A stretch of DNA of 64,000 nucleotides. Origin: an uncultured Alphaproteobacteria bacterium (lineage in GTDB: Bacteria; Pseudomonadota; Alphaproteobacteria; Rhizobiales; Xanthobacteraceae). A program made the translations under genes and the position numbers. Position 1 is the stretch's first letter, and every line of letters starts with the position of its first letter. The notes under the pieces are model-generated. The model was given only the letters and a program-made list of their open reading frames with translations. It searched no databases and was not told the origin of the DNA. The stretch is from assembly GCA_963806465.1 (NCBI GenBank), contig CAWDZD010000051.1:32810-96809 (forward strand). Direction: 5' to 3'. This document shows, piece by piece, positions 1-10,373 of the stretch.

Positions 1-1895
1 TGTATAAGGGCGTGGGAAAACGTGTAGACGGCGTTCGGTATCTCGCCCCGGCAATTCACGAGCCCAGCGCCGACCAGCAAGCGCAGCGCATTGGTGAGCG
101 CGGTCTCGCTCATCAGTTCGAGTCCGGCAATCAACTCGAAACTGAACTCGCGGCCGATCACCGAACCGACCTGTGCGATCTCCTTGCAGACGGTGACCCG
201 ATCGAGCCGAGCCATCAGCAAGTCGCGCAGCGTTTCGGGGATGGTGATACGGGCCGACGACTGGGCAAAGGCATAGCGATCGCCTTCAACGACCAGATCG
301 CCCAATTCCAGGATGCTCTTGGTCAGCTCCTCGATGAACAGCGGCACACCGTCGGTCCGCGCGACGATCTGGTCGGCGAGGCCGGCCGGCAGCGCCTTGC
401 GGGCGACGATCTTGTCGATCAGCGAACGGCTCTGGGCCGGACTGAACTTGGTCAACTCGATCGCCGAGACATCGGCGCGATCGCCCCATGGCGATTTGAA
501 TTCCGGGCGCGCGGTGACGACCAGGAGCGTCGGCACATCGACCAGCCGGTCGACCAGGCGGCTGAGCACGTCGAGCGTCGTCGGGTCGGCGAGGTGCGCG
601 TCCTCGAACAACAGCAGCGTCGGCTGGGTGCGCGCCGCGGCGCGGACGATATCGACCAGCACCCGCATCGTGTCTTCCTTGGCGAGCTTGGGCGAAATCA
701 AGATGGCGCCGTAGCGGTCCTGGTACGGCAGCGACAACATCGCGGCGATAAAACGCAGATCGTCTCGCGGCAGACCGAGACGATCGACGACCAGAGCCTC
801 GAGCTTGTTGAGCCGCGAGTCGACGTGCTCGTCACGGCCGAATTCGAGCGTGCGTTCAAACCACGCCCGGATCGGATAGAACGCGCTGTTGACGAAGAAC
901 GGCGAGCATTGAAACACCAGCGTGTAGCTGGATTGATCGCGCAAACGCTCGCGCAGCGCGGCGACGATCCGGCTCTTGCCAAGGCCGGCCTCGCCGCGCA
1001 CCACGACGGCACGGCCGGCGCCGGTTTGCCGCACATGCCGCCAGCGATCGAGCAGGCTGTCGATTTCCGCCTCGCGTCCAACGAGCGGCGTCATGCCATG
1101 GTGTGTCGCCGCTTCGAAACGACTTGGCGCCTCGCTGACGCCGAGCACCTGATAGACCCGGGTAAGCCCGGAGACGCCTTTGAGATCCTTTTCGCCCAGG
1201 TCCTCGAATTCGAATCGGCCGGCGGCCAAACGCTGCACCGGCTCGCTGACGACAATCGAGCCCGTATGGGCGATCGACTGAAGGCGCGAGGCCAGGTTCA
1301 TGGTCTCGCCCACCGCATTGCGCTCGCCGGAAGTGACAACCACCATGCCGGCGGCGATGCCGATGCGAACCTGCAGCTTTCCGGCGCCGGGGATGTGCAG
1401 GCCCGAGATCGTTTCGATGATGTCGAGCCCGGCCCGGATCGCGCGTTCGGCTTCGCCCTCATGCGCCAGCGGAAAGCCGAAGAACGCGACAATACCATCG
1501 CCAAGCGTCGTGAAGACATAACCCTCGTAGCGATTGACGCAGGTCGTGCAGGCGTCTTCATAGGCGCGAATGACGACCTGCAGCCGCTCGGGATCGAGCT
1601 TGTAGGCGAGCTTGGTGAAGCCGACCATGTCGCAGAACATCACCGTCAGGTGACGTCGTTCGCCGACCGGAACGCTGACCACGGCGTCGAACGGGGTCGA
1701 CTTTTCCAGCCGCTTCTCCTCGCCAAGCAGATGGATGATCCGCTTGCGCGGCCCGAACGGCACGCCGATCTCTTTCAGGTCGGCTTCCGTCAGCATGCGA
1801 AACGTCAAGAGATCGACTTCATTTTCCTCGAAGACCGAGGCAAAACGTTCGAGGCCGTGCGACTTCAGCCATTCGGTGAGTGAGGATGTCACCAT
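1..1895 (-). CDS. SAM-domain / class III adenylate-guanylate cyclase / AAA (STAND-type) ATPase signalling protein; the 3' end runs off the window start
   Basis: Absent from the ORF track because there is no stop inside the window. Hand translation of the minus strand from ATG 1895 gives MVTSSLTEWLKSHGLERFASVFEENEVDLLTFRMLTEADLKEIGV (SAM-like). It continues ERRHLTVMFCDMVGFTKL...TLGDGIVAFFGFP...GETMNLASRLQ (class III cyclase), then GEAGLGKSR (Walker A) and LLLFEDAHLADPTT. The plus-strand ORF 12..1883 is its antisense shadow. The ATG overlaps the upstream stop (ATGGTGA). Confidence 0.85.
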   Translation of the reverse strand, partial: MVTSSLTEWLKSHGLERFASVFEENEVDLLTFRMLTEADLKEIGVPFGPRKRIIHLLGEEKRLEKSTPFDAVVSVPVGERRHLTVMFCDMVGFTKLAYKLDPERLQVVIRAYEDACTTCVNRYEGYVFTTLGDGIVAFFGFPLAHEGEAERAIRAGLDIIETISGLHIPGAGKLQVRIGIAAGMVVVTSGERNAVGETMNLASRLQSIAHTGSIVVSEPVQRLAAGRFEFEDLGEKDLKGVSGLTRVYQVLGVSEAPSRFEAATHHGMTPLVGREAEIDSLLDRWRHVRQTGAGRAVVVRGEAGLGKSRIVAALRERLRDQSSYTLVFQCSPFFVNSAFYPIRAWFERTLEFGRDEHVDSRLNKLEALVVDRLGLPRDDLRFIAAMLSLPYQDRYGAILISPKLAKEDTMRVLVDIVRAAARTQPTLLLFEDAHLADPTTLDVLSRLVDRLVDVPTLLVVTARPEFKSPWGDRADVSAIELTKFSPAQSRSLIDKIVARKALPAGLADQIVARTDGVPLFIEELTKSILELGDLVVEGDRYAFAQSSARITIPETLRDLLMARLDRVTVCKEIAQVGSVIGREFSFELIAGLELMSETALTNALRLLVGAGLVNCRGEIPNAVYTFSHALI

Positions 1896-3310
1896 GGCGA
1901 CGCCCTGCCTTGGTTCGCTGTTTCGACCAGTACGCCATGATTGACGAGCCAGCCGGCGATGGCGAGGCCGCAATCGAGCGGCATCAGGTTAGACCAGGAT
2001 TGGGCAATTTGCAGCGGTGTTCGGCCAGCAGGCAAACGTCGCAGCAGCGGCGCGAGTTCCCACCCGCCGAGATAGGCGACCGGCCTTTGCAGGCCCGGAT
2101 GATGAAGGGCCTCGGCGACGCCGACAAAGTCGCCGTCGAGGCAAGGCGTGCGCACCAACGCGGCGTCACGGCAAAGCTGCACCGGCATCGCAGTCATTGC
2201 ATGGCCATCGACCGGGGTCGACGACGGCGACTTCGGCTCCGGCGCCCCGTGCTTGGCGGCGCGCTCGCGCCAGAAGGAATGGCTGTTCTTGTCGGATACG
2301 GCGCCATAATGCTCGGCGGTCCAGCCGCGGTGCCGCTCCGACGCCTCGCTTAGTTGGGCGCGATAGAAGCTGAACGCCGCCGGCGCGCTGTCCGGCCGCC
2401 GCAGCAGGGTATTGGCGACGACAGCGCCTGAAAGCGCGCTGGCAATGGCCTTCTGTACCCCGCTCGAGGAAATCGGATCGATCGCCAGCGCCGCGTCTCC
2501 CAGCCGAATGGCGTTCGGCGCGACGCAATCGTCTGCAAGATAAGGCGTCGCGTCGATCGCCCGTACCGGACCGCTCAGTTCCGCTTCGCGGCAATCCTGC
2601 ATCAGGCTTGAGCGGCCGAGCAGGGTCAGAAACCGCTGCGCGAGCGAGGAGCCCGGCACCGACCGCAACGATTTTGGATCGACGAAAGCGAGCGTGTTGT
2701 AGGTCTGGTCCGGGAGCGGGACGCCCCAGAACCAGGCATCGTCGCCGGCCTCGATCTGCGGCGCCGCCGGCAAACTTGCGCCGCGCCAATACGCATAGAC
2801 CGCAAGCGTCCTCGCTCCGGTTTGAGCCTGATGGCGAGCGGTGCGGTCGCGCCGTCCGCCGGCGTCAGCCAGAAAGTCGGCCTCGATCTGCATCTGCCGC
2901 CCGTCCACATCGAACGCGATCCGCCATCTACCGCCGCGCCACACCCGCTCGTTGATACGTGCCGGCTGATGCACCGTGACGCCGAAGGCGCGGACGCGCT
3001 CGACGAGGCGCATGTCGAATCGGCCGCGATCGACCAGCAAGCCTTGTTCGTGTGGATCGTCGCGCCATTGCGGCCCGTCGGCCCACTTCACCCGCACGCG
3101 ACGCACACGCGGGAAATCGGCCGCCTCGATCGGCTCATGAAGGTTCGCCGCCCGTAACAACGGCACCGTCCCGGGACTGAGCAACTCGCCGAGCCGACGT
3201 CGCGGAAAGCGTTCGCGTTCGATCAGGCGCACGTCGTGCCCGAGCTGCGCCATGCGCGCTGCGAAGGTAGAGCCGGCCGGGCCGGCACCGACAACGCAAA
3301 CACTAGCCAT
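1889..3310 (-). CDS. FAD-dependent oxidoreductase, LodB/GoxB/QhpG-like (group A flavoprotein monooxygenase / halogenase fold)
   Basis: ORF track 1889..3607. Start trimmed to ATG 3310: MASVCVVGAGPAGSTFAARMAQLGHDVRLIERE has the GxGxxG Rossmann motif plus an acidic beta2 end. A later GDAALAIDPISSSG motif is present. The start overlaps the rSAM stop by 8 nt (ATGGCTAG). Confidence 0.8.
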   Translation of the reverse strand: MASVCVVGAGPAGSTFAARMAQLGHDVRLIERERFPRRRLGELLSPGTVPLLRAANLHEPIEAADFPRVRRVRVKWADGPQWRDDPHEQGLLVDRGRFDMRLVERVRAFGVTVHQPARINERVWRGGRWRIAFDVDGRQMQIEADFLADAGGRRDRTARHQAQTGARTLAVYAYWRGASLPAAPQIEAGDDAWFWGVPLPDQTYNTLAFVDPKSLRSVPGSSLAQRFLTLLGRSSLMQDCREAELSGPVRAIDATPYLADDCVAPNAIRLGDAALAIDPISSSGVQKAIASALSGAVVANTLLRRPDSAPAAFSFYRAQLSEASERHRGWTAEHYGAVSDKNSHSFWRERAAKHGAPEPKSPSSTPVDGHAMTAMPVQLCRDAALVRTPCLDGDFVGVAEALHHPGLQRPVAYLGGWELAPLLRRLPAGRTPLQIAQSWSNLMPLDCGLAIAGWLVNHGVLVETANQGRASPW

Positions 3311-4664
3311 AGAGCGCGCCAGACGGTTCGACCCCGAGTTGCTCCGGCTGCGTCGAGAGCCGCAGATAAGCCTCCAGACAATAATGCAGCCAGCCGCGAA
3401 TAAAGTCGCAGGCCGGTCGGCCGCGCCGGATGGTTTCGTGATGACAGCCGCCGCCGCACAGGTAGCGTGCCCAACAGGATCGACAGGGCTCCTGCCGGTG
3501 CACGTGGCGTGTGGCCAGCCATTCGGCTTGGCGGCCCCGATCGATGCCGCCGGCAAGCGAGCCCATCGCTCCTTCGTCGTCGCCGACAAAGCGATGGCAG
3601 GCGGCAAGCTCGCCCTCGGCGGAAACGCCGAGATACCCGGCGCCGGCGCCGCACGGATAGGGCCGGTGCGTGCCGCGGTGGATCTCGCGCATCGCGTTGA
3701 CCATGTTGGCGAACGGATAGCGTTGCCGCAGCCGCGACCGGCGCTCGAACTCGCGACCGCACTCGATCATTTCGCCCAACATCAGTTCCAGATCATCCGC
3801 CTGCATTTCGCCGTTGCCGGTGGGCGCGCTCAACATCGGCGAAAAACCGACGCTGTGGAAGCCGGCGGCGATCAGGGAGTCCAACGTTTCCCGCAGCGCC
3901 AGATTCCTCGGCGTCACCGTGACCCGGGCCGAGACCTGCATCCGCCGCTGCAGCTTCAACAGCGGTGCGACACGCTGCATCACCCTGTCATAACTGCCGC
4001 GGCCATCCTTGAACGGCCGTAGCGCGTCATGCACCTGCCGCGGCCCATCGATGCTGATGCTGACGGCAAAGCCGTGGTCTTCGAAGAAGTTGGCATCGTC
4101 CTCGGTCAGCAAGGTACCGTTGGTGGTGATCGAAAAGTTGATTGTCGCGTCGCGGGCTTGCGCCGATTCAAGCGCCCGCCGCGTGGCCGCCCGCAGCACG
4201 TCGCGATTGACCAACGGCTCGCCGCCGAGAAACGCCAAATTGAGTTTCGCGCCGGGCTCGGCGTTTTCGGTCAAAAGTTCGACGGCGCGCAGCGCTTCGC
4301 CGAGCGGCATATTTTTCGCCGCGCCGCCGAACTCGCCCTGTTGGGCGTAGCAATAAGTGCAGCCGAGATTGCATTTTTGCGCGATGGCGAGCGAAAGCGC
4401 CCGGATCGGCGGCGGCGGCAGCGGCGTGTCATCGATAAAAGGCTTTCCGCTCAGGCCAGCCCGTCGCAGCAACTCATCGATCTCGGCGGCTTCGCCCCGA
4501 GCCACGGCCGCATCGTACGAGGCGAACATTTCGGCGTCGGCGTCGAACAGCCGGCTGCCGTCGGCGACGAACAGATGGCCGCCCGTGGCGCTTTCGATCA
4601 AATGAAGTTGCGGCGTCCTCGGTGTTGACGCGCGAACATAGTGGCGGGCGTCGGCGAGGCTCAC
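3303..4664 (-). CDS. Radical SAM / SPASM-domain maturase (QhpD / anSME-like)
   Basis: CNLGCTYCYA is the CX3CX2C motif, and GGEPL is present. The C-terminal Cys cluster reads PCGAG..ACHRF..CRSCWARYLCGGGCHHE..ACDF..YC. Start set to GTG 4664, one nt after the upstream TAG. The ORF-track start at 4739 would overlap the upstream gene by 74 nt. Confidence 0.9.
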   Translation of the reverse strand: MSLADARHYVRASTPRTPQLHLIESATGGHLFVADGSRLFDADAEMFASYDAAVARGEAAEIDELLRRAGLSGKPFIDDTPLPPPPIRALSLAIAQKCNLGCTYCYAQQGEFGGAAKNMPLGEALRAVELLTENAEPGAKLNLAFLGGEPLVNRDVLRAATRRALESAQARDATINFSITTNGTLLTEDDANFFEDHGFAVSISIDGPRQVHDALRPFKDGRGSYDRVMQRVAPLLKLQRRMQVSARVTVTPRNLALRETLDSLIAAGFHSVGFSPMLSAPTGNGEMQADDLELMLGEMIECGREFERRSRLRQRYPFANMVNAMREIHRGTHRPYPCGAGAGYLGVSAEGELAACHRFVGDDEGAMGSLAGGIDRGRQAEWLATRHVHRQEPCRSCWARYLCGGGCHHETIRRGRPACDFIRGWLHYCLEAYLRLSTQPEQLGVEPSGALYG

Positions 4665-4665
4665 C

Positions 4666-7203
4666 CTATTTGTCCGGCTTCGCGGGCGGCGGATAGTCGT
4701 GTCCGCCGACCTGGAATTGCAATTTCGTTTCCCAATCACGGAACAGTTCGTCGTACATCATCAGTCGCGTATCGCCATAGTCATCGGCGATATAGGAACC
4801 GGTGCGCTTGCGCTGCATCCAGTTGTCGCCGGTGGCGAATCCCGCTGCGGTCGTCGTGATGTTGACAAAGTCGGGCCGCGCCGAAGCCCAGTAATAGCAA
4901 GAGCATTCGCGATAGTCGTTTTGCCACGGCGAACAGAGGCCTTGCGTCAGTTCGCCGGCCTGCGCCAGCGCATCGGAAATGACTGCGGTATCGTCTTTAA
5001 AGAACGGCCTGATTTCCAAGTTGAAGCTGACGTAATTCTTCAACTCCGGCGAAAGGTCCTGCTCCCACGACATATCCTCGCTGAGCTGCTCGTCCGCCGC
5101 GATGACATCGCTGCTATACAGCAATTGCTGCTGCTCCCAGGCGACATCTTTGCTGAAATCGCAACGCACCTTTTTGCCGGCGTGAGGCAGCACCCGCGCC
5201 AGGGCGTTCGACCATTCCACGGCCGCCAGGCCGTACGGGTTCATGTTTGTCGTCAGGTCGACCTTGCCGTCCGGGTCTGACGACGCCGGTCCTTTGATCG
5301 GCGTCATCATCGGCAACGCAGCCTCGCTCTTGCCGTCCGGCCGGGGCACGACCACGCGCAGCAATCGGCGTCCGGCCAAATCCGCGACCGTCAGCGTACC
5401 ATCTACGCTTTTAGTGCCGGCGGCGTCTCCGGTCTTGTCAGCGCGCACGACGAGATTGTCATGTTCGCGCAGCTCGACGCCCTTGAACACCCGTCGCCAC
5501 ACGGCGCGGAAATCCACTTCCAGCCCCGGACAACAATTCGCGACCGAGGTGATCGGCCGCGAACAAATCGGGTTGCCTCTCGCTTCATAGTGAATCTGCG
5601 CCGACAAGTTGCGTGGCTTCAATCCGCCGTTGCCGCCGACACCGGCCGCGGGAGCCGGCACCGCCACCGGCGGGTCTTGTGCCGTTTTCTTGATGGTTTC
5701 GATCTGACGCCACGTCAGCGCCAGGTAGTTATTGTCGGCGCCGCACATCAGCGCCGGCATCTTGCGCCGACCGTGATCGGTGAAGTCGGCAACTTCGTTA
5801 GGCATCCGCAGCAGCCGCACAAACCACGGTGCCGCGCCGCCGCGCAGCGCCGCGTAGGCCTGCTGGTGCAGGGTCATGGCCGCGAATGTGTCGACGGTGC
5901 CCGGTGCCATGACCGGACGGATGGCACGCTCGGTGTCGGCGGCTTCCTCTTCGGGCATCGAATTGAGCGACAGCGCCGGCCGCCCCTTGTAGTCGTTGCC
6001 GTTCATCACCACGACGTTCATGAAGCGAACCGTCTCGAACGCCCGCCGGACGATATCGAGGGCACGCGCCCGCGTGACTTCCGGCGTCTCATTTTCATCG
6101 ACGTCCGGCCCATGCACCGCTTGATCGAGATCGTCGGCAAGCGAGCGCACAAACAGCAAGTCCGGCGCCATAGCTGGCGGCGCGGCGCAGATGCGCGCGG
6201 TCGCTTGCAGTTTACGACCGTTGGGCAGCGCCAGATGCACCTCGACGAAGCCGTCGCAGGCGTCGTCGAGGTAGCCGCGGCTGATCGCCCGATTGTCGAA
6301 CAGCCAGGACGGCGCCGGCGGCTCGATTGCAAACAGATCGGGCGGCACGGTTTCATTGTTAAAGTCCGGCGGCAGGCCCAAACTCTCGCGCCACTTCTTC
6401 AGGGCTGAGTCTGGCTCTTTCTCGCGGTCCGGATCGCCGAAGCCTTTCCAATTCCTGCCCGCGTTTATCGCGTCGCTATAGACCGCGCGTTGCTTTGGGA
6501 TCTGATAGTGCGCGAGGAATTCCAGCCCGTCCGGCGGACTTGCGTACTGCGCGCTTGCAGCCAATTCGGGGCCATAAATCAAACCTTTCGCCGGCGTGAA
6601 ACGCAGGCGGATTTCCGGAAATTTCGCGTTCGGCTTGATGAAACGCACCTGGCCAAAATCGACGTGTCCGCCGTTGACGAAATTCTTGCAGGTGCCGCGC
6701 AGTGGTTGCGCCTTGTGGTCCTTTATCGACGGCAGCTCGGCATGAACAATGTCGGCGTCGTCGCCGGTCCGTCGGGCAACCTTGCGGTTGGCGACGCGCA
6801 CGCGCCAGCTGATGTCGTCGACGCCAAGCCCGTTGCTTTTCAACAAGTCGGTGGTCAGCGGCACCAGCGCGTCGTCGCCTTCGACGATGGCGAAGACCTC
6901 GAGAAACGGCGCCACCGGGCGGATCTTGGGGTGTTTCCTGTGCGTTCCGTCCTGGCTGTTGTCTTCGCCTTCCTTGAATTGCGGCTTGCTCGGTGTGCGC
7001 TCATCCTCGATTTCGCCAGACCACTGGTTGACGAACAGCGTTGGCTGCATCTTGATGATACGGTAGTCGAGCGGGTACTTCTCGCCTGCCGCAACGTCAA
7101 CCTCGATGGTATAGTTGTCCATCGGCGTGTCGGCGGAACCGAGCCGCGCGATCGCAAACGGCGGCAGAATTCGCAGCTCCTTGATCGTCCGCTTGGTAGC
7201 CAA
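4666..7203 (-). CDS. LodA/GoxA-family protein (putative cysteine tryptophylquinone amino-acid oxidase), 845 aa
   Basis: The N-terminus LRILPPFAIARLGSADTP resembles the LodA N-terminal VHPSIGVARLGN signature as I recall it. CCPGLEVDF (cf. MCPGIEMTW) and CSPWQNDYREC...YYWASARPD (cf. CPWQADFFNC...YWWPPQSP) also fit. TTG start at 7203 with AAGGGG upstream. The conserved N-terminal motif begins at residue 10, so no later start is possible. Confidence 0.75.
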   Translation of the reverse strand: MATKRTIKELRILPPFAIARLGSADTPMDNYTIEVDVAAGEKYPLDYRIIKMQPTLFVNQWSGEIEDERTPSKPQFKEGEDNSQDGTHRKHPKIRPVAPFLEVFAIVEGDDALVPLTTDLLKSNGLGVDDISWRVRVANRKVARRTGDDADIVHAELPSIKDHKAQPLRGTCKNFVNGGHVDFGQVRFIKPNAKFPEIRLRFTPAKGLIYGPELAASAQYASPPDGLEFLAHYQIPKQRAVYSDAINAGRNWKGFGDPDREKEPDSALKKWRESLGLPPDFNNETVPPDLFAIEPPAPSWLFDNRAISRGYLDDACDGFVEVHLALPNGRKLQATARICAAPPAMAPDLLFVRSLADDLDQAVHGPDVDENETPEVTRARALDIVRRAFETVRFMNVVVMNGNDYKGRPALSLNSMPEEEAADTERAIRPVMAPGTVDTFAAMTLHQQAYAALRGGAAPWFVRLLRMPNEVADFTDHGRRKMPALMCGADNNYLALTWRQIETIKKTAQDPPVAVPAPAAGVGGNGGLKPRNLSAQIHYEARGNPICSRPITSVANCCPGLEVDFRAVWRRVFKGVELREHDNLVVRADKTGDAAGTKSVDGTLTVADLAGRRLLRVVVPRPDGKSEAALPMMTPIKGPASSDPDGKVDLTTNMNPYGLAAVEWSNALARVLPHAGKKVRCDFSKDVAWEQQQLLYSSDVIAADEQLSEDMSWEQDLSPELKNYVSFNLEIRPFFKDDTAVISDALAQAGELTQGLCSPWQNDYRECSCYYWASARPDFVNITTTAAGFATGDNWMQRKRTGSYIADDYGDTRLMMYDELFRDWETKLQFQVGGHDYPPPAKPDK

Positions 7204-7219
7204 AGATCCGCCCCTTCGT

Positions 7220-8942
7220 TCAAGCCTCTGCAGCGATGATCCTATTCATCCAATCCCGTGCCTGTGTGTCCAATTGCAACAACGTGTGCAGATAGGCGTC
7301 GGCGCCGGTGCAAGCGAGTTCGTGTTGGTACTTGGCCGCGTTGGGATTTCTGGATTTCGAAGGATCGGCGTCGGCGAGCAGCGCCATGCAGATCTTCTGC
7401 GACGCAGCAAGAAGATTCTCGTGCCGGCGCCACATGTCGACGTCGCGATCCGGGAGCGTCAGTGTATACGGCAGTTCGAACGGCGGCGCCGCCCTCTCGT
7501 CATCCCTGCCGTTGTCGCTGCGCGGCAGGCGCACCAACAGCCCGGAGATGGTCTTGAGGTTGTACATTTCACCGAACACGCGGTGCATGATCATGGCGCG
7601 AAGATTCGGCCGGTCGACGCGCTCACTGCGCGAGATGCGAAAACTGTGCGCCAGATAGTTCAACAGCAACCGGTAGCGCTGGTTGAACAGCTGCGCCAGG
7701 TGCCCGGCGCTTTTTCCGCTAATCACTATGGGTTGTCCGCCGCCTTGTCCGGCAAGTTGTGCAACCGGCTGGCCTGCGGCCGGCAACTCGGCGCCGTGTC
7801 CGGTGGCGGATGCCGTCGCCGCCATGAAGCCCGTAAGCGTGATCGGATTGGCAGGAATGCCGGCAGCCGGCAACCAGCTGGGGTCTTTGCCCTGCTCGTC
7901 CTTGAACTCTTGGTAGATTCTTCAGGAAACGCTTGAAGTGAGACACCTCGTCTTTGCTATCGGGCAACAAGGGATTGCGCAGGTGTGGCGCCTCACCCTG
8001 GGCCGCCAGCGCCTTCAACGCCTTTAGCGCGTCGGCCCGGGTCGCCATGCGATCGATTTGGACGATGCCGTCGTGCGCCGCCTGTCGCTCGTCTCGCTCG
8101 TCGTCCGCCAATTTTTTCTTGTCTTTCCCGGATTTTTGCTTGTCGTTCCCCGACTTTTTCTTGTCGTCTTCTGGTTTCAGGTTGTCGCCCAGCGGATTTC
8201 CCTCGGCGTCAAGTTGACGCGGAGGAGCTTTGTAGCCGCGGCCCCATTCGTCCCAGGAAGCCTGAAACTCGTAACTCGATTCATCGAACATCTCGTCCGG
8301 GATGTTGCTGCGATCGGCGATCAAGTCGATGATCTCTTCGTAGAGCTCGCCGACACGGTGCACATCGGACTTGAATGTGCTGCCGAAATATTCGTGCAAT
8401 TTCGGCAAGACCTCGTTCTTGACGATAGCGCGATCGTCTTCACAAAAATCAGTATCCGAGGCGTCGAACGACGGCGCCTCGGCATAGACAAAGCAACTCA
8501 GCGACAGCAGCGAGACCGGCTCGAGCGTAAACGGATAGGGATAGTATTCCCGCGCCCACGGCGAGGAGTCGCGACCGATGTCGACCGTGGAGCCCAGCAA
8601 GAGCCGCAGATTCTGCACCGTCAGGAGGTGTCCCATCTCCTCCCTGGCGACCGCGATAATGTCGGCGCGCCAACGCTCGATCATTTTCCGGCGGTCCTTG
8701 TCCGGCTCGTCGATGCGAAGCGAGTATGCGGCGTAGAGATATTGCACCATCAGGCAGTGCTCGACGGTGGCGCCAAACGACAACAGCATCAATAGATGGT
8801 CGCGCCACGTCATGTCCGGGCGCTTGGGATGGTCGGCGGCCCATTTGGCGCGCACACGTTGTCTGTGAGATTGTCGTCTGGCGAATTCCCCGGAGTCTTC
8901 GGGAGCAATAATGGCCGAGTTGGTCCGCGCGCCAGTGTTCAT
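7220..8942 (-). pseudogene. Ferritin-like domain protein (PF12902-type, the family I associate with the VioB/RebD domain), split by an apparent 1-nt frameshift near 7916-7923
   Basis: ORF 7719..8942 carries LSFGATVEHCLMVQYLYAAYSL, IAVAREEMGHLLTVQNL and YPYPFTLEPVSLLSLSCFVYAEAP, then decays into Arg-rich junk after EVSHFKRFLK. The +1 frame continues sensibly (IYQEFKDEQGKDPSWLPAAGIPANP...) into ORF 7220..7873, which has LFNQRYRLLLNYLAHSF. Removing one A from GAAGAATC restores a protein of about 574 aa. Confidence 0.7.
8112..8172 (-). repeat. Three imperfect ~21-nt tandem repeats encoding a Lys/Asp-rich linker (KKKSGNDKQKSGKDKKK) inside the ferritin-like gene
   Basis: The plus strand reads tttttcttgtc / tttttgcttgtc / tttttcttgtc at about 21-nt spacing. 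Confidence 0.6.
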
Positions 8943-9071
8943 CGTGCGCTCCCCAATCAGCCCAACTTAACTCAGCTAGCGCCGGCGCCGCCGCGTAGTG
9001 CGGCAACGATGAACTTACCGAGAATTCCTGTCAAGGTTGCACCCCTCATATGCGCATCGCCCACACCAGCA

Positions 9072-9386
9072 TCAAGAATTCTGCGGCGGCGGCCGTTGAT
9101 CGAGCAGCCCGAGAGGGGCGTCGACCATCCGCATATCCCGTAACAGGGCGCGGAATGCACAAATCGCCGACGAATTGCGCCTGACAATCAATTCGATGAC
9201 GCACTCGGCACGCTGACAATCGAATGCAATAATGTGTTCATATATTTGTTGAATCATTTCATCGATCAGGTTGTCGTCATCCTTGATCGCGCACTTCCAC
9301 AGCCGAAATACTTGTTCTTTTGTTAGAGAAGTTTGTCGAACACGCTGATGAATTGCATCTAATTCTTCGGGAGCTATGTCGGTCAC
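9072..9386 (-). CDS. Hypothetical protein, 104 aa, markedly AT-rich relative to its surroundings
   Basis: Part of ORF 9072..9710. GTG 9386 is preceded by a strong SD (AGGAGGGA, 4-nt spacer). The AT-rich composition starts exactly there. Sequence: VTDIAPEELDAIHQRVRQTSLTKEQVFRLWKCAIKDDDNLIDEMIQQIYEHIIAFDCQRAECVIELIV... I recognise no family. An alternative ATG lies at 9560. Confidence 0.5.
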   Translation of the reverse strand: MTDIAPEELDAIHQRVRQTSLTKEQVFRLWKCAIKDDDNLIDEMIQQIYEHIIAFDCQRAECVIELIVRRNSSAICAFRALLRDMRMVDAPLGLLDQRPPPQNS

Positions 9387-9662
9387 GGCATCCCTCCTCT
9401 TCTCATCGCCAAACGTCTGCGGGCGGCTTGCGTGAAATTCGTTCGCCGGCCGTGGCCGGGCGCGGAGGGCGCCGAACCGGCCGCCGGCAAGGGCCGCCGA
9501 AGTGCGGCCCGCCGGTTCCGTCGTCAGTTGAGGGCCACCTGTGAAGGGCATGTGATTCATGGCACAATTCTCGGCGGATGCGCTTGATGCTGTGGCGTAT
9601 AGGGGCAAGGCGGTAGTGTCAGTGCCGCGCGTCACAGGAAATTTCTGCGGGCGGGCAAAAGG

Positions 9663-10373
9663 ATGACGACCGAGACGACAGCGGCGCGCGGCCGCAAACT
9701 GCTGGAACAATGCCCGCTATTCGCTGGAATGGACGAGCGCAGTCGGCGTGAACTGGTCGCGCTGGCCCTGCCCCGCAATTTCGGCGTCGGCGAGCCGATC
9801 TGCCGCCTGGGCGATGTCGGGCTCAGCATGATGGCGGTGGTCACCGGCACGGTGCGCATTACGCTGCCGATGCCCAAGGGCAAGGAGATCATCCTGGCCG
9901 ATCTGCCGGCGGGCGAGCTGTTCGGTGAGATCGCGATGCTCGACGGCAAGCCGCGTTCGGCGGACGCCACCGCCCTGACCAAGTGCGAGCTCCTGGTCCT
10001 CGAGCGCCGCCACGTCATCCCGATTCTCGAGCAGAACCCGGCGATGTGCCTGAAGCTGATGGAGATGCTTTGCGCCCGAATCCGCCACTCCGACGAGCGC
10101 ATGGCCGACATCGCGTTCTTCGACCTGCCGACACGGCTTGCCAAGGTGCTGCTGAACTATCCGGCGAAGACCCGCGACGATACCCAACTCTCCTTGTCGC
10201 AGCGAGAATTGGCGGAAATGGCCGGCGGCACGCGCGAGAACGTCAATCGCTGCCTGCGTGATTGGCAGCGGCGCGGCATCGTCGAGTCGAAGGGCGGCTG
10301 GACCATCATCCGCAAGGCTGAGGAACTGCGCCGCCTGGCCGCGGGCAGTTCGATCGAAACCGCGATGTTCTAG
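9663..10373 (+). CDS. Crp/Fnr-family transcriptional regulator (cNMP-binding domain plus C-terminal HTH)
   Basis: GELFGEIAMLDGKPRSADATA is the cNMP-binding beta-roll signature. LSQRELAEMAGGTRENVNRCLRDWQRRG is the HTH. There is no FNR-type N-terminal Cys cluster. Confidence 0.9.
   Translation: MTTETTAARGRKLLEQCPLFAGMDERSRRELVALALPRNFGVGEPICRLGDVGLSMMAVVTGTVRITLPMPKGKEIILADLPAGELFGEIAMLDGKPRSADATALTKCELLVLERRHVIPILEQNPAMCLKLMEMLCARIRHSDERMADIAFFDLPTRLAKVLLNYPAKTRDDTQLSLSQRELAEMAGGTRENVNRCLRDWQRRGIVESKGGWTIIRKAEELRRLAAGSSIETAMF

Follow-up and report, generated by a model that had tools for sequence, protein, structure and literature searches.

A putative quinoprotein module joining a distant LodA/GoxA-fold protein with QhpD- and QhpG-like maturases and a ferritin-like partner

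We analyzed a stretch of 64,000 nucleotides (nt) from an uncultured alphaproteobacterium of the Xanthobacteraceae (contig CAWDZD010000051.1, positions 32,810 to 96,809 of the forward strand; hereafter the "window"), whose first ~9400 nt hold a module of genes for a ferritin-like protein, an 845-residue protein that we call the scaffold, a radical S-adenosylmethionine (rSAM) enzyme with a SPASM domain, and a flavoprotein. As seen from open reading frame (ORF) calls and translation, all genes of the module lie on the minus strand (window 1–9400), where a small ORF precedes the ferritin-like gene and a STAND gene, which continues beyond position 1, follows the flavoprotein gene (Table 1). Read from the DNA, the ferritin-like gene ends in TGA and is followed after 16 nt by the TTG start of the scaffold at 7203, with a GAAGGGG Shine-Dalgarno–like stretch; scaffold and rSAM genes meet at TAG-G-GTG, rSAM and flavoprotein genes at ATGGCTAG, and an ATGGTGA overlap sets the STAND start on the flavoprotein stop. 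The first-pass annotation, made from the letters of this DNA, had described the same gene order and coordinates, the same junctions (a 16-nt gap, a 1-nt gap, and overlaps of 8 and 7 nt), and an AT-rich stretch at 9386–9072 (G+C content of 0.495, versus 0.60–0.67 in neighboring genes), and all of this was borne out except that the ferritin-like gene is not one ORF (see below). Pfam likewise returned the domain content that had first been read, i.e., SAM_1, Guanylate_cyc, and AAA_16 in the STAND product, a flavoprotein, Radical_SAM, and PF12902. Scans with Rfam and for tRNA genes gave no match in the window.

Table 1. Features of the module and its immediate surroundings, with window coordinates.
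Feature	Position	Strand	Basis or remark
STAND gene, 5′ part, 631 codons	1–1895	−	SAM domain, class III nucleotide cyclase, AAA_16 NTPase; runs off the window start
QhpG-type FAD monooxygenase, 473 residues	1889–3310	−	NCBIfam QhpG NF049967
QhpD-like radical SAM/SPASM enzyme, 453 residues	3303–4664	−	TIGR03906 best match
Distant LodA/GoxA-fold scaffold, 845 residues	4666–7203	−	AlphaFold2 model and Foldseek
Invariant motif LCSPWQNDYRECSCYYWASARPDFVN, scaffold residues 756–781	4861–4938	−	Translation
Ferritin-like (PF12902) partner gene, 1-nt insertion at ~7922; intact form 573 residues	7220–8942	−	Pfam; comparison with contig L087
Small lineage-specific ORF; 9386–9072 gives 104 residues, gene callers on relatives take 162	9072–9560	−	ORF calls
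Crp/Fnr-family regulator, cyclic nucleotide–binding domain, divergently transcribed	9663–10373	+	Pfam cNMP_binding and HTH_Crp_2

The scaffold belongs to a large and widespread family. We found more than 1300 homologues in the protein collection, named "hypothetical" wherever a name is given and represented by 969 clusters at 50% identity, and a scan of one genome per species recovered relatives in 478 genomes. These span Alphaproteobacteria, Acidobacteriaceae, Verrucomicrobiota, Gemmatimonadota, Planctomycetota, Myxococcota, and Gammaproteobacteria; hosts in culture include Nitrincola, Catenovulum, Taklimakanibacter, Rhodobaculum, and Bradyrhizobium iriomotense. Synteny was counted in the best-matching 80 loci drawn from these 478 species-level genomes, with denominators that differ per feature. 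The ferritin-like gene lay directly upstream of the scaffold in every case (76/76), the rSAM gene directly downstream in 70 of 73 loci, a flavoprotein gene was in the locus in 65 of 67 and a STAND gene in 50 of the 57 loci with enough flank, and a scaffold motif described below was present in 77 of 80. The flavoprotein gene follows the rSAM gene in most loci and is upstream or divergent in Acidobacteriaceae and gammaproteobacteria. Because the same order recurs across phyla in these 80 loci, the arrangement is far beyond chance, and its universal core consists of four genes, encoding the ferritin-like protein, the LodA-fold protein, the QhpD-like rSAM/SPASM enzyme, and the QhpG-like flavoprotein. 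Of the longer operon proposed in the first-pass annotation, the four core genes are thus conserved, including the adjoining rSAM gene and the upstream ferritin-like gene for which a survey of neighborhoods had been suggested, whereas the AT-rich ORF and the STAND gene fall outside the universal core. An all-versus-all clustering of stop-to-stop ORFs from the 80 loci was swamped by shadow ORFs of the high-G+C core genes and was uninformative beyond the five genes.

The scaffold scores below the cut-offs of the curated family models, namely Pfam LodA_N (20.0 versus 26.3), Pfam LodA_C (16.2 versus 25), and NCBIfam GoxA (21.8 versus 750), and some relatives narrowly pass LodA_N (30.2 for a 572-residue part encoded at locus L086, and 27.9 for P0192). 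We modeled it with AlphaFold2 from a more diverse alignment (predicted local distance difference test, pLDDT, 80.4; predicted template modeling score, pTM, 0.88), after dropping a first run on a shallow alignment (36 sequences, ≥57% identity) that had reached a pLDDT of 57 and left the C terminus unmodeled. When this model was searched with Foldseek against the PDB, the top 50 matches were all GoxA or LodA (E = 1.4e-10 to 9e-9, 506–678 aligned columns), at ~12% identity. A HMMER search of the family profile against PDB sequences gave three colinear matches to LodA/GoxA, the third of which placed GELTQGLCSPWQNDYREC on GDLTKRMACPWQADFFNC of LodA and GDLTKWMGIPWQSDAASC of GoxA. In this alignment, D763 falls on LodA D512 and C767 on C516, the cysteine of the cysteine tryptophylquinone (CTQ) cofactor, and likewise on D678 of GoxA and the Cys four residues on; both D763 and C767 are invariant across the scaffold family. 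The tryptophans W772, W795, and W824 are all invariant as well, and the alignment to LodA stops short of the W581 region. Since the PDB matches are to this fold only and the motif matches are colinear, despite sub-threshold family scores, model and sequence together mark the scaffold as a distant LodA/GoxA-fold member that lies outside the family as the curated models define it. The LodA-type assignment given at first pass therefore stands for the fold, for the three colinear motifs, and for the LodA_N match of the L086 part, and fails at the Pfam and NCBIfam cut-offs.

Conservation within the scaffold is highest in a family motif, LCsPWQxDxxxCxCxYWxxxxPDxxN, which in the window protein runs L756-C757-S-P759-W760-Q761-x-D763-x3-C767-x-C769-x-Y771-W772-x4-P777-D778-x2-N781 and in which C757, P759, W760, Q761, D763, C767, C769, Y771, W772, P777, and D778 stay unchanged in members as distant as 28% overall identity. 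A closely similar arrangement is found in QhpC, the small gamma subunit of quinohemoprotein amine dehydrogenase (QHNDH), which in its mature form reads L26-C27-Q-P29-MEA-D33-LYG-C37-ADP-C41-W-W43-PAQVA-D49-TLN52 in the five true qhp operons that we used for comparison (L085 and L088–L091). As known from QHNDH structures, Cys27 and Asp33 of QhpC form one of its thioether rings. In another, Cys41–Asp49, QhpD has closed a ring around Trp43, which forms CTQ with Cys37 and is the dihydroxylation target of QhpG, an enzyme that acts on Trp43 within this ring and only with the substrate held by QhpD (PMC7876137). Each of the six modified QhpC residues (C27, D33, C37, C41, W43, and D49) has an invariant counterpart in the scaffold at the same or nearly the same spacing, and hhalign set C757/C27, P759/P29, D763/D33, C767/C37, W772/W43, D778/D49, and N781/N52 in register (P = 0.027, 29 columns). 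When C-terminal fragments of seven family members were compared with all of Pfam, each matched one to four families, with LodA_C among them in 7/7 and QH-AmDH_gamma in 5/7 (E = 0.003 to 1), the latter being the sole family besides LodA_C to recur among these matches. Against the PDB, the C-terminal profile of the scaffold found LodA, GoxA, and QhpC, and nothing else. A joint regular expression, composed after both sequences had been seen, gave 90 matches in 3.56 M six-frame residues of the collected DNA, all of them in scaffold-family genes or qhpC. LodA and GoxA, which mature with LodB or GoxB alone, have no second Cys and no nearby Trp following the CTQ Cys in the profile alignment against the PDB. 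Residues 756–781 are thus the predicted site of a CTQ (C767–W772) and two thioethers (C757–D763 and C769–D778), and this QhpC-like motif on the scaffold, which the first-pass annotation did not contain, is a concrete reason for its pairing with both types of maturase.

The two maturase genes point in the same direction. The flavoprotein, of the FAD/Trp_halogenase type in Pfam, passes the NCBIfam QhpG model NF049967 (316.5 bits versus a cut-off of 240; protein 4–440 on model 1–412 of 423) and fails those for LodB (104.5) and GoxB (99.7), whose cut-offs are 400; it is also 28% identical over 272 residues to the flavoprotein encoded next to the qhp operon of Paracoccus pantotrophus. Of its original description as LodB/QhpG-like, the QhpG part is therefore upheld and the LodB part is not, and we predict from sequence that it dihydroxylates the cofactor tryptophan. 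The rSAM enzyme, which is the best conserved protein of the module, carries CX3CX2C (CNLGCTYC) and a CX2CX5CX3C SPASM motif (CRSCWARYLCGGGC) as read in its sequence, and is 35% identical (E = 8e-75) to QhpD of the true qhp operon on a P. pantotrophus plasmid. Because its best NCBIfam match is QhpD (TIGR03906, 306 bits) yet lies below the cut-off of 453, its sequence classes it as QhpD-like and not as an equivalog; PapB comes second (266 versus 340), and Nif11-type and SCIFF maturase models also give scores. The earlier view that it is QhpD-like agrees with its 100 bits on the anaerobic sulfatase maturase model (cut-off, 349) and with its synteny with the LodA-like gene, and it is predicted to form Cys-to-Asp thioethers. 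Other parts of a qhp operon are missing: ORF reading in and around the operon gave no small QhpC/QH-AmDH_gamma ORF with a leader, and domains of the diheme QhpA, of QhpB, of the QhpE protease, and of the QhpF ABC exporter were not among the module genes in Pfam or NCBIfam.

The fourth member of the core passes PF12902 (Ferritin-like) at E = 6e-25 and 88.8 bits, against a cut-off of 22.3, and its sole sequence relative in the PDB is an entry named bacterioferritin (E = 0.002). Since the Glu and His residues that are invariant in 16 diverse members (E61/H62, E102-x-x-H105, E317, E332-x-x-H335, and E458) show an ExxH-plus-Glu pattern, the protein likely has a two-metal carboxylate site. Other clades have single polypeptides of 900–1200 residues that join PF12902 to a LodA-like protein's N-terminal two-thirds (P0164, P0178, P0183, P0186, P0197, and P0229), and the Cys/Trp motif was missing from these fusions when they were checked for it. 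In P0206 (2062 residues), an arsenite oxidase–like molybdopterin subunit is joined to the same LodA-like region instead. The recurrent pairing of ferritin-like and LodA-like proteins, including the fusions, suggests a physical and redox partnership.

On this basis we favor, with moderate confidence, the reading that the four-gene core makes a cytoplasmic quinoprotein whose cofactor is built in the C-terminal part of the LodA-fold protein itself. The chemical steps, which tryptophan is used, the kind of substrate, and what the ferritin-like protein does are what we infer here, alongside the observed gene content, conservation, fold, motif match, and family scores. The rSAM enzyme would make two Cys-to-Asp thioether rings, C757–D763 and C769–D778 (compare C27–D33 and C41–D49 of QhpC), the flavoprotein would dihydroxylate W772 inside the second ring, as QhpG does on Trp43 of QhpC, and C767 would link to the oxidized indole to yield CTQ; D763 would be the conserved Asp of the active site (compare LodA D512, GoxA D678, and QhpC D33). 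The mature enzyme would then oxidize some amine or amino acid, in complex with the ferritin-like partner, which may serve as an electron acceptor or O2-reduction partner or else as a scavenger of peroxide (H2O2), and which would let such a quinoprotein run inside the cell. The enzyme is probably cytoplasmic because, by reading of the sequences, no signal peptide is evident on either the scaffold or the ferritin-like protein, and no exporter or protease is encoded. Expression could plausibly be set via a cyclic nucleotide by the cyclase-STAND protein and the Crp-type regulator. The proposal made at first pass, that a LodA-type scaffold, a QhpD-like rSAM enzyme, a QhpG-like flavoprotein, and a ferritin-like partner constitute an uncharacterized quinoprotein subclass, gains backing from fold, family scores, and synteny. 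The possible role raised with it, of an amino acid oxidase that would generate H2O2 and whose product the ferritin-like partner would handle, is a conjecture. We also found no paper, NCBIfam model, or PGAP name for the gene set, in keeping with the earlier statement that no characterized example was known: neither the scaffold nor the ferritin-like partner is modeled in NCBIfam release 20; PGAP names the products "radical SAM protein," "tryptophan 7-halogenase" or "FAD-dependent monooxygenase," "ferritin-like domain-containing protein," and "hypothetical protein"; and full-text literature searches, which mostly do not cover subscription journals, so that an earlier description is possible, gave no description of the set and nothing beyond the known QHNDH and LodA papers.

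Several observations weigh against this reading. The hhalign support for the link between scaffold and QhpC is modest and sub-threshold, the QH-AmDH_gamma (PF08992) scores of the fragments are 10–18 bits versus a cut-off of 25, and the C-terminal fragment of the window scaffold itself has no QH-AmDH_gamma match in Pfam. A trimmed, motif-only profile of 46 positions lost LodA, GoxA, and QhpC when run against the PDB, with chance matches to lipase and tubulin only, so the QhpC link hangs on the slightly longer profile and on hhalign; the regular expression, for its part, carries the bias of its composition after the fact. C769 is two positions off C41 of QhpC, and the first thioether of QhpC (C7–E16) and its 28-residue leader have no counterpart in the scaffold, so no leader accounts for recognition of an 845-residue substrate by the rSAM enzyme. 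As for the structure, the Foldseek TM-scores are low (0.22–0.34), and model confidence is lowest precisely at residues 761–790. Furthermore, the CTQ Trp of LodA lies 65 residues past the Cys, and either W795 or W824 could be the true partner. Last, the copy in the window has a frameshifted ferritin-like gene, so it may be inactive here.

The frameshift raises a question separate from the identity of the system, namely whether the module is decaying in this genome, with a genuine frameshift that leaves it non-functional here, which we regard as somewhat unlikely. The first-pass annotation had taken 8942–7220 as a single ORF, which does not hold: its 1723 nt are no multiple of 3 and contain two overlapping ORFs, 8942–7719 (407 residues, with an out-of-frame tail) and 7873–7220 (217 residues). 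The cause is an extra A at ~7922 (region 7915–7925), where the window reads CTGAAGAATC and the metagenomic contig L087, 99.8% identical and encoding an intact 573-residue ferritin-like protein, reads CTGAGAATC. The extra A could stem from a sequencing error or from a frameshift that arose very recently. The two sequences differ at just 3 places over the 1723 nt, and the indel falls within a short run of A, as is typical of a sequencing or assembly error; the remaining genes are intact, and the matter bears on this copy alone.

Regarding the cofactor itself, an alternative that we consider unlikely is a LodA-style CTQ, in which C767 pairs with the distant W795 or W824 as C516 does with W581 in LodA, the flavoprotein is LodB-like, and the rSAM enzyme adds stabilizing thioethers or has another role, e.g., as a chaperone. 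Such a pairing would suit the LodA-like fold and D-x3-C motif of the scaffold and the invariance of W795 and W824, to which the conserved NW and DWRxL downstream in QhpC may also correspond. It sits poorly, however, with a flavoprotein that scores 316 bits on QhpG versus ~100 on LodB and GoxB, and with an invariant W772 that lies in the predicted ring, exactly at the place of QhpC Trp43, where LodA and GoxA have no Trp.

We deem it quite improbable that the module is instead a natural-product cluster, possibly for a peptide made by the ribosome and modified after translation, in which the rSAM enzyme and flavoprotein act on a separate small peptide or free tryptophan and the LodA-like and ferritin-like proteins are tailoring enzymes in the style of VioB/RebD. 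No small precursor gene is conserved in the 80 loci, and the gene junctions in the window are tight; small ORFs are not conserved past the closest relatives, and there are only 140 nt ahead of the ferritin-like gene in locus L004, a place that the flavoprotein gene occupies in Acidobacteriaceae. The core also lacks a peptidase or exporter. A cluster of this kind would account for the scores of the rSAM enzyme on PapB, Nif11-type, and SCIFF maturase models, for the resemblance of the STAND protein to "TOMM system kinase/cyclase," for the Trp_halogenase match of the flavoprotein, for C-x3-D/E spacings in the small upstream ORF, and for the PF12902 domain common to VioB, but the VioB likeness is confined to the ferritin-like domain (30 bits versus 1250) and within the scaffold it is the Cys/Asp/Trp motif that is conserved best. 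Least probable of all is that C757, C767, and C769, with Asp, bind a metal or iron-sulfur center in a metallo-oxidoreductase that is no quinoprotein. In its favor, these are the only three invariant Cys family-wide, within 13 residues, and they have a metal protein beside them as partner. Against it, C767 and D763 align with the Cys and Asp of the CTQ site in LodA, GoxA, and QhpC, the dedicated QhpD- and QhpG-type genes are strictly co-inherited, and we know of no cluster-binding motif of the form C-x9-C-x-C with one Trp and two Asp.

Around the core, the STAND cyclase and, here, the Crp-type regulator look like one of several regulatory add-ons. The STAND product, whose relatives have 1113–1137 residues and whose gene is not in the gammaproteobacterial loci, matches Pfam SAM_1, Guanylate_cyc, and AAA_16 and reaches 342 bits on NCBIfam TOMM_kin_cyc, below the cut-off of 706; it is a frequent accessory and a probable regulator. 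Its cyclase domain (product residues ~78–250) keeps FCDMVGFT and LGDG, which we take to hold the metal-binding Asp, NLASR, presumably with the Asn/Arg pair, and a Thr in TTLGDG at what we take to be the site of the base-specifying Lys of adenylate cyclases. The Crp/Fnr-family regulator is 94–98% identical in L001, L005, and L074, has weaker Crp-like counterparts in the same place at several other loci of alphaproteobacteria and Verrucomicrobiota, and possibly receives the cyclase signal. A reading as anti-phage defense was set aside, as PADLOC gave generic matches only, of the cyclase to PycC (weak, E = 1e-12) and of the rSAM enzyme to viperin, and nothing for the scaffold, flavoprotein, or ferritin-like protein. 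The small ORF has no Pfam, NCBIfam, or PADLOC match and was found only in the closest relatives (L001, L005, L074, and L087). It encodes four Cys with C-x3-D/E–like spacings (KCAIKDDD and DCQRAECVIE) that resemble PapB-type thioether sites, and its product might be an extra rSAM substrate in this lineage; as an rSAM substrate in the core it was rejected because of its restriction to the closest relatives.

Individual loci depart from the common layout in various ways. At L086, on Bradyrhizobium barranii plasmid pBb323S2c (NZ_CP088279.1; 3195–11759 and 17768–19284), the scaffold is naturally split into the 572-residue N-terminal part that passes LodA_N and a separate 263-residue part with the Cys/Trp motif, followed by genes for the rSAM enzyme and the flavoprotein. 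A gene for a 915-residue BNR-propeller, FlgD_Ig, and ferritin-like protein lies upstream of the 572-residue gene, on the opposite strand and transcribed away from it, and a canonical "LodA/GoxA family CTQ-dependent oxidase" is encoded 7 kb downstream. The Nitrincola sp. MINF-07-Sa-05 chromosome (L080, 2647–21357) has a gammaproteobacterial four-gene core with no STAND gene, flanked by genes for two dCache histidine kinases, a sigma-54 response regulator, a response regulator–GGDEF protein, a TAXI-TRAP transporter, and a glutaminase, which may hint that the substrate is related to amino acids. In a Gemmatimonadetes metagenome-assembled genome (L082), the ferritin-like and motif-bearing scaffold genes have no rSAM, flavoprotein, or STAND gene within 10 kb, and at L033 the rSAM and flavoprotein genes lie ~9 kb upstream. 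Compared with the nearest genome, L005, the ferritin-like and LodA-like genes of the window (5050–8900) are ~78% identical in nucleotides, with proteins at 64–76%, whereas the maturase and STAND genes are ~94% identical, and the rSAM, flavoprotein, STAND, and Crp proteins are 91–98% identical. A sharp recombination boundary was ruled out as the cause of this divergence, which is patchy: it concentrates in linkers and inserts at scaffold residues ~28–270 and 520–720, with conserved cores and the motif kept.

The system looks like a hybrid of the qhp maturation pathway and a LodA/GoxA scaffold, and by curated definitions it is a member of neither family. The known CTQ enzymes use two seemingly unrelated maturation routes. 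CTQ itself is known in three enzyme types only, QHNDH, LodA, and GoxA (PMC11951088). The scaffold family, whose 478 species-level genomes belong to bacteria of soil and water in many phyla, appears to merge both routes in one protein. More tentatively, we suggest that it may be a third lineage of CTQ enzymes that bridges the two known ones, with a LodA-fold protein, a QHNDH gamma–like active site (CTQ plus Cys-Asp rings) that is leaderless and carried on a protein of ~800 residues, and a two-metal ferritin-like subunit that replaces heme or free O2. If there is such a lineage, QhpC may have begun as the C-terminal part of a LodA-like protein that became detached, or the derivation may have run the other way, and the split form on the Bradyrhizobium plasmid would be an intermediate. 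If the proposed merging of routes is true, it would provide a testable hypothesis on the relation between the two CTQ systems and a further example of an rSAM enzyme that cross-links a full-size enzyme. It would also suggest why LodA-like proteins are so often associated with iron proteins (ferritin-like, catalase-like, and PF14518), and would give a function to ~1000 clusters, at 50% identity, of "hypothetical proteins" and to the "radical SAM protein" and "tryptophan 7-halogenase" encoded next to them.

The comparison with QHNDH rests on the QhpG equivalog match of the flavoprotein, on the QhpD-like rSAM enzyme, and on the scaffold pattern C-x5-D-x3-C…C..W-x5-D-x2-N, which matches QhpC 27–52 including the CTQ pair and two thioether pairs. 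The module differs in that the motif sits at 756–781 of an 845-residue LodA-fold protein and not on a small, leader-bearing gamma subunit, in the absence of QhpA, QhpB, QhpE, QhpF, and any counterpart of the first QhpC thioether, and in having a ferritin-like partner in place of the heme subunit. LodA and GoxA are the sole structural relatives of the scaffold and share with it WxVxxANKK, DDxxDG, and PWQxDxxxC, a CTQ Cys and active-site Asp in register, and a downstream flavoprotein gene. Unlike LodA and GoxA, the present family combines its low identity and sub-cut-off scores with a flavoprotein of QhpG type, which is not the sole maturase since an rSAM gene lies between scaffold and flavoprotein genes; it has extra invariant Cys, Trp, and Asp residues, a Trp 5 residues past the Cys versus 65 in LodA, and an obligatory ferritin-like partner.

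A further likeness is to fungal lodA-like loci: Campillo-Brocal et al. (2015) described PF12902 genes beside lodA-like/lodB-like loci of Agaricomycetes, as well as LodA-like proteins fused to iron domains of catalase-like or PF14518 type (PMC4417212). There, too, LodA-like proteins are recurrently tied to iron or redox domains, with the same PF12902 family; those loci were, however, reported without an rSAM gene, and their LodA-like proteins were found by ordinary LodA/GoxA similarity; the present scaffold family lies outside that survey, as far as its text shows (PMC4417212). With VioB, RebD, and StaD the ferritin-like protein shares the PF12902 domain, including a weak NCBIfam VioB match at model positions 600–742, but the score on TIGR04492 is 29.7 bits versus 1250, over the domain only, and nothing points to imine coupling of indole pyruvate or to a cluster of the violacein or rebeccamycin type. 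PapB and the sulfatase maturases are, like the rSAM enzyme of the module, SPASM rSAM enzymes; PapB makes Cys-to-Asp/Glu thioethers, and the sulfatase maturases are a precedent for action on a full-length protein. Both models match below their cut-offs, however, and the module has no ranthipeptide precursor and no sulfatase.

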